From the IMG/VR virus record IMGVR_UViG_2861079508_000001: a stretch of 64,000 bases of DNA. One strand, written 5' to 3'. Origin of the DNA: a virus (taxonomy: Duplodnaviria > Heunggongvirae > Uroviricota > Caudoviricetes). Positions 2,892 to 61,815 of the stretch are shown here, one piece after another. The notes below the pieces were generated by a model. The model searched no databases. It was given only the letters and a program-made list of their open reading frames with translations, and had not been told where the DNA came from. A program made the position numbers and the translations under genes. Numbering within the stretch: position 1 is the first letter of the stretch; each line of letters begins with the position of its first letter.

Positions 2892-6610
<3,719 letters not shown>

Positions 6611-24795: not shown

Positions 24796-25182
24796 ATGTC
24801 TGACAACAAGATTGAATTTATAGAAAGTCGCTATGCTGCTTTTATCGCAGGGCTGATTGAATCCTCACCTATGAGTCAGGCCCAAATAGCCAGACTTATT
24901 GGTTATAAAAATGCCAACAACCTTTCTTTAATTAAAAGTGGCAAAATTCCTTTGCCTATCGATAAGGTTCGTCCGTTGGCGCTGGCGCTGGGTATTGAGC
25001 CAAGTCGTCTTATGATGATGGTGCTGGAAGAACGCCAACCTGAACTCGCAGCATTTTTATACAAAGAAGGCACCGCTCCTCTTAACGAGGACGAAAAACA
25101 GGTTCTTGCTGCATATAACGAGCGATTCGGTAAAGAGAAAGGCGCATCACAAAAGGTTGTTGAGGCCATAAAGTCTCTATGA
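24796..25182 (+). CDS. helix-turn-helix (XRE-like) transcriptional regulator
   Basis: 128 aa; SQAQIARLIGYKNANNLSLIKSGK helix-turn-helix; AT-rich 250-bp upstream region. Confidence 0.55.
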   Translation: MSDNKIEFIESRYAAFIAGLIESSPMSQAQIARLIGYKNANNLSLIKSGKIPLPIDKVRPLALALGIEPSRLMMMVLEERQPELAAFLYKEGTAPLNEDEKQVLAAYNERFGKEKGASQKVVEAIKSL

Positions 25183-26280
25183 AAAATTTACACGAATAAG
25201 CTCTGTTGATAGACGATCTCCCTTGAATTTGTGGTCAATTTCGTCTAAATCCGGTTGCTCTACGATTGATGCGATGTACGTCGAGAAACTTTCTAAGGCG
25301 TCTCGCATCTCGTCCATATAATCGTGCCGGTCGTAGACTCGATCTATCCCCTCAAGACTGTGGTTCATGATTTTGCGTGATACCTCCTGGCTTATGCCTA
25401 ATGCTGGGAAGTAACTACGCGCAGTGCGGCGCAAGTCTCGGGGTGTAAATGGCTCAAGCTCCATCAGTTCTGGTCGTTCCAGAATACGACGTAATGCCTG
25501 GGCTATTGCCACTTTAGACATAGGAAGGTCTTTCCCGATTTTTTTATTCGAAGGCACGAGCCACTGGCTGCCTTTACCGTATTCGAACAACTCTTCAATG
25601 CATGTGCGCATTAATGAGCTTAAAGGCAGAGAATGCTCACGGGCAGATTTGTTCCTCTTGCCTTGATTCCAAACCCCACGCTTAAGATTGAACTCACTTT
25701 TTTTAGCCCGCAGTACTTCGTCAGGTCGTCTTGCGGATACAAGACATAGCCTGGCCGCCCATTTTGTACCAGCACACACATTGAAGTAGTCCCATATATT
25801 CCAGAACACCCATACCTCTGCGTCGGTTAGCTTCCGCTCGCGAGGTGTGGGCTTTGCGCCACCGGCAACTTTGTTAAGTGACATATCGTTTAACGGTGAC
25901 ACGTCGATCATCCCCTGGAAGGCGCACCAGCTGAGGAACTGCTTCATCAGAGAGAAAACGCGGCGACCCATAACAATTTTGCCATCCAGTATTAGTGGGT
26001 TGACCAGTTGGTTCACCATGAACCTATTAATATCACTTACTTTTACATCGGCAATGTGCGGCAAAACATGTATCAAAATACAATGAACAGCGATCTCTGG
26101 CCGACGTCTTGTTATCAGCAGAGATAAGCGAGTGAATAACATGAATGCGTCCGAGAATCTCATGTCATTGCTGACCTGGGAGATCATAACGGCCTGCATT
26201 TGAGATGCTCTTTCGAGATACTCAATCGCCTCTTTTGAGGTGTTCTCCGCAGCGCGTGCTCTGTCAAAGCTATTTTTCAT
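25177..26280 (-). CDS. tyrosine recombinase / integrase (lambda Int-like catalytic domain)
   Basis: 367 aa; C-terminal TPRDLRRTARS and NHSLEGIDRVYDRHDY (box II, His, Tyr nucleophile). Confidence 0.7.
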   Translation of the reverse strand: MKNSFDRARAAENTSKEAIEYLERASQMQAVMISQVSNDMRFSDAFMLFTRLSLLITRRRPEIAVHCILIHVLPHIADVKVSDINRFMVNQLVNPLILDGKIVMGRRVFSLMKQFLSWCAFQGMIDVSPLNDMSLNKVAGGAKPTPRERKLTDAEVWVFWNIWDYFNVCAGTKWAARLCLVSARRPDEVLRAKKSEFNLKRGVWNQGKRNKSAREHSLPLSSLMRTCIEELFEYGKGSQWLVPSNKKIGKDLPMSKVAIAQALRRILERPELMELEPFTPRDLRRTARSYFPALGISQEVSRKIMNHSLEGIDRVYDRHDYMDEMRDALESFSTYIASIVEQPDLDEIDHKFKGDRLSTELIRVNFS

Positions 26281-27714: not shown

Positions 27715-28623
27715 ATGATTGGTAAGTTGTCTGATTCTTTGATTGAAAATAAATACAACGAATTTAGAGAAGAAATATCTTTACTTTTTGACTATTTAAA
27801 TCAGATAAATGATACAACAAAGAAAAATATAAAACGTCTTCTTAAAGAAGTGGAGTATGCACAAAATCCAGATACTATTATTAATATTAATGAAACTATT
27901 AAGATTAAGTGTGGCACAACGTTAGCTCGCCATTTATGTTCAAACCCATATACAGGTTCAACATTAGAGATAGGTAACAGCGCCATTGATTTAGAAGAAA
28001 AGATAAGATTGTGTAATACTTTGAAAAATAAACAATATCAGTGGGTTATTACTGAAGCCTATGAGTTACTGGAAGACTATATTGAGGCAATATATGTCTA
28101 TACTGTATGTGTTCGAAATGATTTATGGTCCTCAAGTGATTTTGGTAAGGTTGAAGATGATGAAATTGGGAAAAGGGAAGTTTATTACAGATTATTAAAA
28201 GCAAAAAGTAACCCATCGAAAAAAATAACTAAAATTTTCAGAAATAAAATACCTGGCTTCAAAGAGATAGAAACAAACAACAAGATTGGCAAAAACTATC
28301 GCTTTAACATCAAGCTAATTGAACTACTAAGACATACAATAGTACACAATAGTGGACGATTCAATGATACAGAAAAATTTATAAATAAGGTTTTAGATGA
28401 ATCTGAAATAAACGGTAAGAAAAGAGTTATTGGAGAAAGAGCTGTTAGAAGTTACATTACTAAAGTGCAAGAAGATGATATTGTGATGCTCTTAGAAAGA
28501 CCATCTGAAATTTTAGGTTCTTTTGGTGGGTATTTTAACAGAGCAAAATTTTTACTAAGTGATATTTTAGAATACTCACTAATCATTAAAGAAGAACTAA
28601 AATCATATCTAGGCAATCATTAA
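27715..28623 (+). CDS. AT-rich orphan protein with HEPN-like Rx4H motif; candidate Abi-like defence/anti-defence
   Basis: 302 aa; coding region visibly AT-rich versus flanks; motif LLRHTIVHNSGRF (R-x4-H); own upstream motif and own terminator; function is inference. Confidence 0.5.
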   Translation: MIGKLSDSLIENKYNEFREEISLLFDYLNQINDTTKKNIKRLLKEVEYAQNPDTIININETIKIKCGTTLARHLCSNPYTGSTLEIGNSAIDLEEKIRLCNTLKNKQYQWVITEAYELLEDYIEAIYVYTVCVRNDLWSSSDFGKVEDDEIGKREVYYRLLKAKSNPSKKITKIFRNKIPGFKEIETNNKIGKNYRFNIKLIELLRHTIVHNSGRFNDTEKFINKVLDESEINGKKRVIGERAVRSYITKVQEDDIVMLLERPSEILGSFGGYFNRAKFLLSDILEYSLIIKEELKSYLGNH

Positions 28624-28630
28624 CAAAAAA

Positions 28631-28658
28631 GGGGCCGAAGCCCCTTTGGATTTTGCGC
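28631..28658 (+). terminator. intrinsic terminator GGGGCCGAAGCCCC plus TTTGGATTTT
   Basis: read directly, 8 bp after the 27715..28623 stop. Confidence 0.65.
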
Positions 28659-28720: not shown

Positions 28721-28799
28721 TCACAGCGTTGAGCGGTCTGGTTTATGTTAGCGGAGTCTTAATCGAGTTGATTAAAAGGCCAAACCGCTCAACGCTGTG
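28721..28799. repeat. long hairpin H0 (arms CACAGCGTTGAGCGGTCTGG / CCAAACCGCTCAACGCTGTG, ~38-nt loop)
   Basis: inverted repeat read directly, just 3' of tRNA-Ser on the minus strand. Confidence 0.5.
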
Positions 28800-28801
28800 T
28801 C

Positions 28802-28888
28802 TGGCGGAGAGTAATGGAATCGAACCATCATCGCTTGCGCAATGGGACGGTTTTCAAGACCGCTTGAGCACCATGCTCCCTACTCTCC
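28802..28888 (-). tRNA. tRNA-Ser (anticodon UGA), class II long variable arm
   Basis: folded by hand from the reverse complement: acceptor GGAGAGT/ACTCTCC, anticodon loop CTTGAAA, T-loop TTCGATT, 3' CCA. Confidence 0.8.
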
Positions 28889-28987
28889 AGCTATTGTGAT
28901 GGTCGGTGCTGAACTCCGACACAGGGTTGTAGCAAGCCCCGCAAAGCGCGCACTACTGTAGTTGCGGCACATCAGCCTGTGCATTCA

Positions 28988-29070
28988 TCACAACGGTAAG
29001 ATCACTACCTTTCGACCAGTCATTGTGCACATGAACGACGATTAACCGTAATGATCTTATCGTTGTGTTG
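28988..29070. repeat. long hairpin H1 (arms CACAACGGTAAGATCA / TGATCTTATCGTTGTG)
   Basis: inverted repeat read directly between tRNA-Ser and tRNA-Thr. Confidence 0.5.
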
Positions 29071-29115
29071 TGAAGCCAGATGCTTATCTTCTGGTTGCTT
29101 CAAAGAGCTGCACTT

Positions 29116-29208
29116 CCTCACAACGGTAAGAGCACTGGTCTGACTCTATCGATTTACGGCCTTGTGGGTCAGTATCGCCGATTCGCCCAATGCTCTTACC
29201 TGTTGTGT
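29116..29208. repeat. long hairpin H2 (arms CACAACGGTAAGAGCA / TGCTCTTACCTGTTGTG), paralogue of H1
   Basis: inverted repeat read directly; ends at tRNA-Thr. Confidence 0.5.
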
Positions 29209-29284
29209 TGGTGCCGGTTAACGGACTTGAACCGCTGGCCATTCGCTTACAAAGCGACTGCTCTACCAACTGAGCTAAACCGGC
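29209..29284 (-). tRNA. tRNA-Thr (anticodon UGU)
   Basis: hand fold: acceptor GCCGGTT/AACCGGC, D-arm GCTCAGTTGGTAGAGC, anticodon loop TTTGTAA, T-loop TTCAAGT, CCA. Confidence 0.8.
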
Positions 29285-29288
29285 AATT

Positions 29289-29375
29289 TGGTGGGGAGTG
29301 ATGGAGTCGAACCACCCGAGTCGCCATGACAGTAGATTTACAGTCTACACCGCTACCTCTACGGACTAACTCCCC
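29289..29375 (-). tRNA. tRNA-Tyr (anticodon GUA), class II
   Basis: hand fold: anticodon arm CAGACTGTAAATCTG-like (GACTGTAAATC), long variable arm, T-loop TTCGACT, CCA. Confidence 0.85.
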
Positions 29376-29380
29376 TAAAT

Positions 29381-29455
29381 TGGCGATGGTGGGTGGATTC
29401 GAACCACCGACCAGTTGGTTAACAGCCAACTGCTCTACCGCTGAGCTACACCATC
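29381..29455 (-). tRNA. tRNA-Asn (anticodon GUU)
   Basis: hand fold: perfect 7-bp acceptor GATGGTG/CACCATC, anticodon loop CTGTTAA, T-loop TTCGAAT, CCA. Confidence 0.85.
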
Positions 29456-29717
29456 AATTCAGCACTGCCAGTATTTATTACTCAACAGTGCCAATCGCGA
29501 CGGTTTAGTTTCTGCCAGGAAACGCACCGCTACTTGCACTTTTCGTTAGTGCCAGACGCTTTCGACTTCGCTCAATAGTAGAAGGCAAAATCTTTAAGTA
29601 GATGATGTTTCTGAGGACAGCACCTACTTTGTAATTTATACAATGTGATGTATGGAATCATTTGTTGTGAAAACAGGCACCAATGGCAACAGTGGTTAAA
29701 CCTACACAACAATCCCG

Positions 29718-29846
29718 TCTTCACAACGTTGAGGCCACTACTCCGATTGAATGTTTGCCCAACATGTTACATATCAACGCTCGCCGGTATCTCTGTGAAT
29801 AGAACCTTAGAATTGATAAAAATGTAATGGCCTCAACGTTGTGTGC
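29718..29846. repeat. long hairpin H3 (arms CACAACGTTGAGGCCAC / ATGGCCTCAACGTTGTG, ~93-nt loop)
   Basis: inverted repeat read directly in the non-coding region. Confidence 0.45.
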
Positions 29847-30004
29847 TGGCTAACCATACCAGCCGGGCTACGTCGCCGCTTTTTAACCCAGTATAAACGA
29901 CATAATTGAACAAAATGACGTAACAGGATGGGCGGTCAGTGGCTAAGAATCCGGGAGTCATATGGAGTTGAAAATATACCAACCGCCCATTCTGTTACTT
30001 CATC

Positions 30005-44378: not shown

Positions 44379-44987
44379 TCAGTTATACAGATTTCTATTT
44401 ATTACCGGTACTCTGCCATTTACGCTAAAACTATGGCCGCCATTAAGTTGGTTTACGAATATCGAGCTAACAGTATTTCCATATGCCGCATATCCATAAA
44501 CCATTGTCATGGCTCCGCCCGGTACTGGAACAGCGAACACATTCGCATATGTTGGGATTATCGCTGGTGGGTAATCAAAAACATGCCCTCCAGAGCTGTT
44601 CCACTCCGTATTATTAAGAAAGGTAAATGAAAGTGGGATATTTGCCGTATTATAGATTTCCTCCCCTTGTGCATTGAAAAAACTCATGCCCCAAGTTTCT
44701 TTTTTGGCTATACCTTTCGAAAATACGTATATCGTGGCACTAGAGTCGCTACCCTGACCTCCGAAACTGTAAATCACCTGGTTGTTACGCACTATTCTGT
44801 TGGCTATTAATGAAACAGCTTTCGAATAGGCAACAAAAATCATCGGTGAACGATCTGGAGATATTTGGGTGTTAAACTCTGTCCCGCCGGACAAAGAAAC
44901 AACCTGCTTTCTCTGAAAAACGATAGGAGACAAAGAAGGAGACATCCAGACCTTCCCGTCAGATCGATATATCTTGCTTCCGTACAT
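44379..44987 (-). CDS. hypothetical tail-fiber-associated protein (202 aa)
   Basis: ORF directly downstream of the tail fiber locus; Gly/Ser/Asn-rich. Confidence 0.35.
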   Translation of the reverse strand: MYGSKIYRSDGKVWMSPSLSPIVFQRKQVVSLSGGTEFNTQISPDRSPMIFVAYSKAVSLIANRIVRNNQVIYSFGGQGSDSSATIYVFSKGIAKKETWGMSFFNAQGEEIYNTANIPLSFTFLNNTEWNSSGGHVFDYPPAIIPTYANVFAVPVPGGAMTMVYGYAAYGNTVSSIFVNQLNGGHSFSVNGRVPVINRNLYN

Positions 44988-60601: not shown

Positions 60602-60928
60602 ATGACTAAAAATACTCGTTTTTCCCCCGAAGTCCGTCAGAGGGCGATTCGTATGGTTCTGGAAAGTCAGGGCGAATATGACTCACAGTGGGCGGCAATT
60701 TGTTCCATTGCCCCAAAGATTGGCTGTACACCGGAGACTCTGCGTGTCTGGGTACGCCAGCATGAGCGGGATACCGGAGGCGGTGATGGCGGGCTCACCA
60801 CCGCTGAACGTCAGCGTCTGAAAGAGCTGGAACGTGAAAATCGTGAACTGCGCCGCAGTAACGATATCCTTCGCCAGGCTTCCGCTTATTTTGCGAAGGC
60901 GGAGTTCGACCGCCTCTGGAAAAAATGA
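60602..60928 (+). CDS. IS629 OrfA
   Basis: 108 aa [23 protein letters not shown]...; A6 run at 60920-60925 at orfA/orfB overlap. Confidence 0.9.
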
Positions 60929-61815
60929 TGCCACTGCTGGATAAGCTGCGTGAGCAGTACGGGGTCGGACCGCTATGCAGCGAACTGCATATTGCCCCGT
61001 CAACGTATTACCACTGTCAGCAACAGCGACATCATCCGGATAAACGCAGTGCCCGTGCGCAGCGCGATGACTGGCTGAAGAAAGAGATACAGCGCGTATA
61101 CGATGAAAATCATCAGGTGTACGGTGTGCGTAAAGTCTGGCGTCAGTTGTTACGGGAAGGTATCAGAGTGGCCAGATGCACTGTGGCACGTCTCATGGCG
61201 GTTATGGGACTTGCCGGTGTTCTCCGGGGTAAAAAGGTCCGTACGACCATCAGCCGGAAAGCCGTTGCCGCAGGCGACCGCGTAAACCGTCAGTTCGTGG
61301 CAGAACGACCTGACCAGCTGTGGGTGGCTGATTTTACTTACGTCAGCACATGGCGGGGCTTCGTCTATGTGGCGTTCATCATTGATGTGTTTGCCGGATA
61401 CATCGTGGGGTGGCGGGTCTCATCGTCTATGGAAACGACATTCGTGCTGGATGCTCTGGAGCAGGCGTTATGGGCCCGTCAACCGTCCGGCACAGTCCAT
61501 CACAGTGATAAAGGTTCTCAGTATGTATCGCTGGCCTACACACAGCGGCTTAAGGAAGCCGGATTACTGGCATCAACAGGAAGTACTGGTGACTCGTATG
61601 ACAACGCGATGGCGGAGAGCATCAATGGCCTTTACAAAGCGGAGGTAATACACCGTAAGAGCTGGAAAAACCGGACAGAAGTGGAGCTGGCCACACTCAC
61701 GTGGGTGGACTGGTATAACAATCGACGATTGCTGGAAAGGCTGGGCCATATCCCACCGGCAGAAGCAGAAAAAGCTTATTATGCTTCCATCGGAAACGAT
61801 GATCTGGCAGCCTGA
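60925..61815 (+). CDS. IS629 OrfB (DDE transposase), -1 frame relative to OrfA
   Basis: 296 aa with rve core (WVADFTYV...HHSDKGSQY...YDNAMAES). Confidence 0.9.

Follow-up and report, generated by a model that had tools for sequence, protein, structure and literature searches.

Hairpins interleaved with a phage tRNA cluster belong to a covarying RNA family shared with lambda and Qin and are probably RNase III processing stems

Stems that are cut by ribonuclease III (RNase III) divide the functional units of polycistronic RNA. The classical examples, which include R1.1 and other sites of the T7 early region and the stems that flank the 16S and 23S ribosomal RNAs (rRNAs), are about 20 bp long and often irregular. 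In T7, the loops of the sites are small and a single cut often results from an internal loop, and the rRNA stems are formed by distant flanks. Here, we describe four long hairpins (H0, H1, H2 and H4) at positions 28,721 to 29,846 of the virus record IMGVR_UViG_2861079508_000001 (IMG/VR; Caudoviricetes), of which the whole stretch of 64,000 nt that was analysed is referred to as the window. These hairpins belong to the same family as a hairpin in the late leader of phage lambda and a hairpin upstream of dicF in prophage Qin. This family shows no sequence similarity to the classical RNase III stems; the base of its stems, CACAAC/GUUGUG, is conserved, and its loops are large and variable. Because of their homology to the lambda and Qin members, we read the four hairpins as cis-acting RNase III processing stems in a minus-strand transcript of transfer RNAs (tRNAs) and small RNAs, a reading that we consider probable.

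Two described systems come closest to this locus. Faubladier, Cam and Bouche reportedly found in 1990 that the 5' end of a 190-nt DicF precursor is generated by RNase III, and Daniels, Subbarao, Blattner and Lozeron are said, to go by the title of their 1988 paper, to have described RNase III processing sites of the Q-dependent late transcript of lambda. More recently, the 190-nt DicF species was found to be lost without RNase III, which makes its 5' end, and the 53-nt DicF is then made by RNase E (bioRxiv 10.1101/2023.04.14.536235, Ragunathan 2023). RNase III sites in the lambda late leader are also given as reported at the point where PMC7547250 cites its reference 49. The Qin site is like our locus in that a homologous hairpin precedes a closed module and, beyond it, a small RNA that RNase E releases, all within a polycistronic phage transcript. 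However, it precedes an Hfq-dependent small RNA (sRNA) instead of flanking tRNAs, its arms are divergent and its stem base contains U.G pairs; the published account does not place this hairpin in any family. The lambda late leader carries a canonical family member directly past tR', with arms that are near-identical to those of H2, but it is a messenger RNA leader that precedes the lysis genes, and no tRNAs adjoin it. The stable 'species 1 and 2' RNAs of the phage T4 tRNA cluster are likewise structured non-tRNAs that are co-transcribed and co-processed with phage tRNAs; they have no sequence relation to the hairpin family, and neither a function nor a long stem of the RNase III type is known for them.

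An initial annotation of the window, made from its letters without database searches, had reported four long hairpins with shared CACA(A/G)C-type stem bases. All four inverted repeats are present where it placed them:

28722..28799, minus strand: hairpin H0, 78 nt, with a 20-bp stem CACAGCGUUGAGCGGUUUGG / CCAGACCGCUCAACGCUGUG
28989..29067, minus strand: hairpin H1, 79 nt, with stem CACAACGAUAAGAUCAUUAC / GUAGUGAUCUUACCGUUGUG, in which pair 8 is an A.C mismatch
29119..29207, minus strand: hairpin H2, 89 nt, CACAAC-A(bulge)-GGUAAGAGCAUUGG / CCAGUGCUCUUACC-GUUGUG, a canonical family member
29722..29843, minus strand: hairpin H4, 122 nt, with a 20-bp stem CACAACGUUGAGGCCAUUAC / GUAGUGGCCUCAACGUUGUG and an 82-nt loop

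The stem bases read CACAGCG/CGCTGTG in H0, CACAACG/CGTTGTG in H1 and H4, and CACAAC(A)GG/CCGTTGTG in H2, with CACA(A/G)C...G(U/C)UGUG as the closure common to all four; three of the six occurrences of CACAACG in the whole 64 kb are stem bases of these hairpins. The arms measure 19–21 bp and the loops approximately 38–82 nt, which agrees with the lower end of the 38–93 nt loop range first proposed and shows that its upper end was slightly too long. H1 and H2 are paralogous (repeat family D2), as had been supposed, and the loops of the four hairpins are mutually unrelated. Folded as minus-strand RNA, the hairpins had z-scores against dinucleotide shuffles of -9.5 (H0), -4.9 (H1), -5.5 (H2) and -6.5 (H4), and none of 200 shuffles folded as well. 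The minimum free energy (MFE) fold of the entire 1.6-kb minus-strand transcript keeps all four stems, fully closed. The minus-strand stems are uninterrupted over 20 bp because G.U pairs stand at the positions where the plus strand has C.A mismatches. All four have U.G at pair 17. The bulged A after the sixth pair occurs in H2 only, the other three being of no-bulge subtypes. In the alignments to the covariance model R1 described below, the U.U mismatch at pair 9 is absent from all four. Two simple identities were rejected. The hairpins are not tRNAs, as hand folding had already indicated, since neither ARAGORN nor Rfam (E up to 10) calls any of them one; nor are they intrinsic terminators, as no U tract follows any of the four and a terminator scan finds only 28628-28647.

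To place these hairpins among phages, viral contigs were scanned with a pattern and the hits were filtered for arm complementarity. This gave about 100 elements among the matches listed, and the family occurs in more than 100 viral contigs. Its members have the form 5'-CACAAC(A)GGUAAGAGCAUUG ... CAGUGCUCUU(U/A)CCGUUGUG-3', with unrelated loops of 25–95 nt, several covarying arm variants and a total length of 64–135 nt. The main subtype has the bulged A together with U.U at pair 9, and 79 of 179 members have no bulge. A second scan, which was unbiased for the 5' arm as it was anchored only on a 14-mer at the junction with the downstream module, found such a hairpin upstream of about 60 of 92 unique junctions, again with varied arms. 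The H0 arm subtype is present in 56 viral contigs and the H4 subtype in 58, most of them of 60–115 kb, a length that fits phage-plasmids. BLAST searches with the lambda copy matched at least 244 phage records, from phages of Salmonella, Klebsiella, Escherichia, Enterobacter, Shigella and Cronobacter, and in these 244 records the element is annotated as 'hypothetical protein' or not at all, and never as anything else. The same stem base lies beside trnT in P1, where the H2 orthologue (L002:2828-2914) is inside the annotated 'plp' open reading frame (ORF), as well as in D6, in Klebsiella phage-plasmids and in SSU5. Orthologues from E. coli and Klebsiella phage-plasmids have identical arms and differing loops.

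We built the covariance model R1 from an alignment of 46 independent members (A2) that contained neither the window nor any close relative of it. R1 recognised all four window hairpins, with E-values from 2e-14 (H2) to 7e-7 in local searches (H0 with speed filters off). Scores on the minus and plus strands were 62.1 and 41.3 bits for H2, 46.2 and 42.9 for H1, 40.2 and 30.0 for H4, and 30.4 and 23.9 for H0. Elsewhere, the model scored 59.9 bits in lambda, 37.8 in SSU5 and 35.0 in Qin, and it found four sites in the leader of the P1 ban operon (60.6, 47.4, 33.7 and 28.6 bits). All four window hairpins also fit the structural definition of the family, a stem of 19–20 bp with CACARC / GYUGUG closure and a variable loop of 25–95 nt. 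H0, H1, H2 and H4 are therefore members of one family with the hairpins of lambda and Qin. Rfam searches of the window and 14 related loci, in gathering and E-value modes, returned no hairpin family and only chance matches of the microRNA and small nucleolar RNA type, and a literature search for the exact arm sequence gave no match.

The exact lambda 20-mer is present in the genomes of many Enterobacterales genera. It also occurs in low-coverage contigs of assemblies from unrelated taxa (L233, L254, L261, L246, L253 and others). Three such contigs, from Pseudomonas sp. and Shewanella canadensis, have the length of the lambda genome (about 48.4 kb), shorter ones of about 21–24 kb occur in Oceanobacillus and Neobacillus, and small fragments with the 20-mer were seen in further taxa. 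These contigs look like contamination of the assemblies with lambda DNA.

Next, we asked on which strand and at which level the pairing is selected. With a strand-neutral detector that accepts Watson-Crick pairs only, 112 oriented non-redundant members were collected, and on their sense strand these contain 1907 Watson-Crick, 172 G.U and 34 A.C pairs. Orientation by the bulged base and orientation by the flanking motif agreed in 71 of 71 cases. Each of the 22 members found no more than 220 nt from a tRNA has the orientation of that tRNA, and the distance to its end is often 1–2 nt. Covariation analysis across relatives, which the initial annotation had proposed as a check, found the stem pairing to be conserved with compensatory changes. 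In A2, pairing holds in 95.1% of cells, and changes on both sides are seen at 10 of 19 pairs. The alignment has a covariation score of 0.287, which none of 500 shuffles reached (0.105 in shuffles), and sliding the partners drops the pairing to 33–59%. Wobble and compensatory changes are seen among the orthologues of both H0 (56 contigs) and H4 (58 contigs and SSU5). Those of H0 retain the pairing, with U.G at pair 17, and those of H4 include a wobble intermediate and a compensated pair (GGCC/GGCC, GGUC/GGCC and GACC/GGUC). In the window, the minus strand outscores the plus strand in R1 for all four hairpins, and all tRNAs are on the minus strand as well. The G.U excess, the covariation and the co-orientation with tRNAs together mean that selection acts on the pairing in the RNA, and on the strand that is transcribed. 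The stems act as RNA on the tRNA strand, and their pairing is under selection.

The lambda member (44787-44862) lies immediately after tR' of the 6S RNA, with arms nearly identical to those of H2. In lambdoid prophages, the element belongs to the late leader that separates Q from the holin gene, where it follows the PR' terminator directly. At L044 (9495-9571), an Rfam match to isrJ corresponds to a PR'-type transcript, short and terminated, that immediately precedes a family hairpin, and IsrJ therefore looks like a late-promoter RNA of the lambda-6S or StxS type. The Qin member (NC_000913.3, 1649173-1649256; 35 bits) lies between ydfC and dicF, upstream of the latter. Its hairpin sequence is CAUAACGCGAAAGCGCAUGG...CCGUGCGCUUCCGGUUGUG, and a module closed by GUUGUGGC/GCUGCAAC follows. 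Counting the 190 nt of the DicF precursor back from the annotated 3' end of DicF at 1649434 (1649434 - 190 + 1) gives 1649245, which lies in the 3' arm of the Qin hairpin (1649238-1649256), about 12 nt from the stem base; any precursor length of 179–197 nt would still end in this arm. The published RNase III-made end of the DicF precursor thus maps into the 3' arm of the Qin hairpin. For lambda, we infer that the mapped RNase III sites may be those of the 44787-44862 hairpin. ManS, an RNase III-processed sRNA of Salmonella, was also checked and is unrelated.

The window region is 100% identical to E. coli plasmid NZ_CP080257.1, and its close relatives, the pECOH89-type and 'phage CMS-2020a' / Cyrano genomes, are SSU5-like phage-plasmids. 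As the initial annotation had noted, the hairpins are interleaved with a tRNA cluster, here tRNA-Ser, tRNA-Thr, tRNA-Tyr and tRNA-Asn on the minus strand. The other features of this transcript are as follows:

28628..28647, minus strand: intrinsic terminator (terminator scan), about 75 nt after H0, which closes the tRNA and hairpin unit
28802..28888, minus strand: tRNA-Ser (UGA), called by ARAGORN and Rfam
28893..28988, minus strand: module B after H1, with closing helix UUGUGAUG / CAUCACAA, which re-uses GUUGUG of the H1 3' arm
29068..29118, minus strand: short module B after H2, with closing helix GUUGUGAGG / CUUCACAAC and inner hairpin CCAGA-AGAUAAGCA-UCUGG
29209..29284, minus strand: tRNA-Thr, called by ARAGORN and Rfam
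29289..29375, minus strand: tRNA-Tyr, called by ARAGORN and Rfam
29381..29455, minus strand: tRNA-Asn, called by ARAGORN and Rfam
29664..29721, minus strand: short module B after H4, with closing helix GUUGUGAAGA / UUUUCACAAC, 9 of 10 Watson-Crick pairs
29914..30004, minus strand: fifth long hairpin with another arm sequence (inverted repeat I2; 25 pairs in the MFE fold)

In the order of transcription, the fifth hairpin (30004-29914) is followed by H4, a module B, a spacer, tRNA-Asn, tRNA-Tyr and tRNA-Thr, and then by H2, a module B, H1, a module B, tRNA-Ser, H0 and the terminator (28647-28628). H4 is thus the first family element of the transcription unit and H0 the final one ahead of the operon terminator. 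H2 starts 1 nt past the CCA of tRNA-Thr, and H0 starts 2 nt past that of tRNA-Ser. The terminator also serves a convergent plus-strand ORF that ends at 28623. No sigma-70 consensus promoter was found inside the cluster, and it is therefore probably co-transcribed with the upstream minus-strand genes. The fifth hairpin, just upstream of H4, has about 25 bp (arms 29915-29936 and 29982-30003) and scored only 14.7 bits against R1, which does not make it a clear family member; it may be an additional double-stranded RNA (dsRNA) processing site. Both this hairpin and the tRNA-shaped modules between the hairpins had been overlooked in the initial annotation. The tRNA-Ser is also matched by the tRNA-Sec model of Rfam at 44.6 bits, just below the gathering score of 47, because of its long variable arm, and the same tRNA-Ser(UGA) is present in D6. 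Further away in the window, the frameshift site of an IS3-family element is marked by an ALIL pseudoknot at 60883-60999 (Rfam RF01497, 120 bits).

Family hairpins are typically followed by module B, a tRNA-shaped spacer that is closed by a helix re-using the 3' GUUGUG of the hairpin plus 3–4 further nucleotides, with its partner, ...CACAAC, 50–200 nt downstream. A first test of this helix that allowed G.U pairs was uninformative, as shuffles scored as well, and it was redone with Watson-Crick pairs only. At least 9 of 10 such pairs were then found in 28% of cases, compared with 0.8% of shuffles, and the extra nucleotides covary (GUG/CAC, AUG/CAU, AGG/CUU and CUG/CAG). In the window, the closing helix is present after H4, H2 and H1 with 8–9 of 10 Watson-Crick pairs, the partner after H4 ending 58 nt downstream; H0 is followed by the terminator instead of a module B. 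In the module after H1, sequence reading and alignment with relatives and lambdoid leaders reveal GCAC-AGGCUGAU-GUGC, which resembles a D arm, and GUCGG-AGUUCAGCA-CCGAC, which resembles a T arm, and the short module after H2 is conserved in P1, D6 and Ro157c2YLVW. The lambda centroid fold prefers the pairing of GUUGUG with the downstream CACAAC.

Among described RNAs, STnc100 (RF02076) and the PasD prophage sRNAs (Zhu, Shabalina & Storz 2026, bioRxiv 10.64898/2026.05.13.724894) come closest to module B. The module aligns with STnc100 including the closing helix UGGUG/CACCA, a 5' hairpin and a 3' CCGGG...CCCGG hairpin, and STnc100 and PasD occupy the same niche, namely the Q-to-holin region and tRNA clusters. 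However, this likeness concerns the neighbouring module B and not the hairpins, and it is below threshold: module B of L054 aligns to positions 31-147 of STnc100 with 38 bits (threshold 47), and the window between 28600 and 30250 gave no STnc100 match at E up to 10. A resemblance to Y RNA (YrlA) was dropped, as it was a chance sub-threshold match over true tRNAs in L054 and the topology differs.

If the hairpins are RNase III stems, the processing might proceed as follows. The polycistronic minus-strand transcript would comprise the four tRNAs and several tRNA-shaped spacer modules, and each element is a dsRNA helix of 19–21 bp in which the base (CACARC/GYUGUG) is conserved and the loop is arbitrary. 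Host RNase III would most likely cut both arms about 8–12 bp above the stem base, which would separate the upstream tRNAs from the RNA that follows and free the loop as a small hairpin. As H2 abuts tRNA-Thr and H0 abuts tRNA-Ser, each of these tRNAs would keep a short 3' trailer for trimming by exonucleases. The 3' half-arm (...CCGUUGUG) would be left as the 5' end of the downstream piece, and its freed GUUGUG could re-pair with the CACAAC 50–200 nt further on and close module B. From the lambda and Qin members, we infer that the window copies are probably cut by RNase III and may then refold in this way.

Several observations weigh against this interpretation. RNase III requires no more than about 20 bp of dsRNA, so that the strong conservation of CACAAC/GUUGUG is left without explanation, as are the bulged A and the two conserved features further up the stem, U.U at pair 9 and U.G at pair 17. 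GUUGUG can also pair with the downstream CACAAC, to the exclusion of its pairing in the hairpin, which suggests an additional or different role, and H0 has nothing downstream to release but the terminator. The lambda link rests on a paper title and on position. When the whole lambda late leader is folded, 44787-44862 is not among the helices of at least 9 pairs; those listed are the closing helix of module B (44857-44941) and other helices of 11–16 bp. The fold thus does not single out the hairpin as the RNase III site, and several other helices of the leader are candidates. Finally, the Qin member is divergent, with its score of 35 bits, and the '190 nt' of the DicF precursor is a gel estimate.

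The initial annotation had left open whether the hairpins are structured small RNAs, processing signals or recombination and packaging sites. The G.U bias, the covariation, the co-orientation of all 22 tRNA-adjacent members with their tRNAs and the Qin and lambda homologues favour a processing signal on the tRNA strand. The hairpins might instead be genes for stable trans-acting small RNAs, in which the stem is a scaffold, the variable loop is the working part (a decoy, a tRNA mimic or an antisense seed) and processing merely releases them. Loops that are hypervariable between constant arms would suit such genes, as would the location of the elements in tRNA-like slots of tRNA arrays, 1–5 nt from the neighbouring tRNAs. 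A T-arm-like stem-loop occurs in 9 of 98 loops and an initiator-tRNA-like anticodon stem-loop (GGGCUCAUAACCC, with the compensatory variant GGCUUCAUAAGCC) in 5 of 98, both in the sense orientation only; loops with the canonical T-arm (GGGUUCGAAUCCC) or the initiator-like stem-loop are exemplified by L002:2828-2914, L104:10639-10730 and L034:1855-1949. However, the window loops carry neither motif and are unrelated to each other, the loops of E. coli and Klebsiella orthologues differ despite identical arms, and alignment A2 shows no family-wide loop conservation, which makes this explanation unlikely. Some tRNA-derived fragments in the loops of relatives and the location in tRNA clusters could also be read as signs of decaying duplicated tRNAs or neutral palindromic filler, and the initial annotation had named a degenerate duplicated tRNA fragment as what might explain the arms. 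This does not hold for the arms. In hundreds of phages, which span several families and several host genera, the arms are maintained through compensatory changes, at a constant position and orientation, and a tRNA acceptor stem has 7 bp, not 20; neutral remnants would not hold 95% pairing. We therefore regard a remnant origin as highly improbable.

Explanations at the DNA level start from the variability of the locus. Among phage-plasmids that are more than 96% identical (L001, L003 and L004 compared with the window), the interval between tRNA-Ser and tRNA-Thr (28889-29208) is hypervariable: Cyrano has no hairpin there, SCU-175 has different hairpins, and CMS-2020a SCU-107 has H1 only, directly after tRNA-Thr, H2 and its short module B being absent. 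The junctions of these gains and losses fall in CACAAC, and modules are common to P1-like, SSU5-like and lambdoid phages. The hairpins could accordingly be attC-like recombination sites in single-stranded DNA (ssDNA), or cassette boundaries that serve a recombinase or homologous exchange, and would then shuffle tRNA and small-RNA cassettes between phages. They do resemble attC in size (64–135 nt), in their imperfect stems with conserved ends, variable centres and extrahelical bases, and in their position 3' of short cassettes. However, attC folds as ssDNA and needs IntI and the RYYYAAC/GTTRRRY boxes, whereas the ends in the window, ACACAAC/GTTGTGA, depart from these once on the 5' side and twice on the 3' side, and H0 has AGC/GCT for AAC/GTT. 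The initial annotation had called any link to the nearby tyrosine recombinase speculative. This ORF (25177-26280) encodes an ordinary phage-type integrase, and its one match is to a generic integrase domain (NF007246, 33.5 bits), none of the integron-integrase models being hit. In lambda, P1 and Qin, the element stands at positions unrelated to any recombinase and is not accompanied by a dedicated one, and ordinary homologous recombination between repeated stems would explain the unit insertions and deletions equally well. Moreover, G.U exceeds A.C by 5 to 1, always on the transcribed strand, and this asymmetry argues against a structure at the DNA level. Recombination or packaging sites are thus not borne out, and we consider them very unlikely. 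The 16–20 bp inverted-repeat arms, the total length of 64–135 bp, the many copies and the variable presence among relatives would also fit miniature inverted-repeat transposable elements (MITEs), the arms being terminal inverted repeats. Yet the flanks (T...T, A...A and G...G) contain no repeat that would indicate a target-site duplication, the interiors are unrelated between copies, all copies keep one orientation relative to transcription, the arms show covariation instead of identity, and no matching transposase is known; neither a transposase binding the CACAACGG ends nor empty and filled sites with duplications were seen. A MITE origin is barely credible.

A broader interpretation joins the RNase III stem to its neighbour. 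Here, the hairpin and the STnc100-like module B would form a modular, horizontally exchanged RNA 'processing cassette' of many enterobacterial phages, with a refolding switch triggered by RNase III and with loops that act in trans. After refolding, the tRNA-like cap could control the stability of the following tRNAs or sRNAs (of the DicF or Pas type) or their processing by RNase E or RNase P. The excised loops might constitute a diversifying pool of small hairpin RNAs, some of which would mimic a T-arm or the anticodon arm of initiator tRNA, and they might act in trans, for example as decoys for host defences that target tRNAs or for translation factors. We consider this combined scheme speculative and rather unlikely.

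The family also touches existing annotations. In P1 (NC_005856, L002), the family hairpins of the ban-operon leader lie at 2334-2412, 2595-2688, 2828-2914 and 3273-3353, with a 'dicF-like region' just upstream of them. The ORFs upl and plp are covered by three of the four and, because their annotation is on the strand opposite to the hairpins, are probably not genes. In lambda (NC_001416, L270), orf-64 (44621-44815) overlaps the 6S RNA, tR' and the start of the hairpin and is unlikely to be a real gene.

RNase III stems were already known as a kind of element, as were the DicF precursor site and, probably, the one in the lambda late leader. What is apparently unrecorded is that these are part of a single conserved, covarying family across lambdoid, P1-like, SSU5-like and other enterobacterial phages, and that this family alternates with STnc100-like modules and tRNAs. 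It occurs in hundreds of phages without an entry in databases or genome annotations, and P1 plp and upl, lambda orf-64 and many 'hypothetical proteins' that overlap its elements call for correction. Two old and isolated observations, the RNase III sites of the DicF precursor and, probably, those of the lambda late leader, are joined in one RNA family. RNase III-dependent biogenesis of sRNAs is considered rare in Gram-negative bacteria (PMC11745405), and the family provides a search model for such biogenesis in prophages. That the stem sequence is conserved and a downstream partner competes for it hints at refolding as a regulated step. If our reading as RNase III stems is true, it would explain how tRNAs are excised from the long transcripts of phage-plasmid, P1-like and lambdoid clusters.

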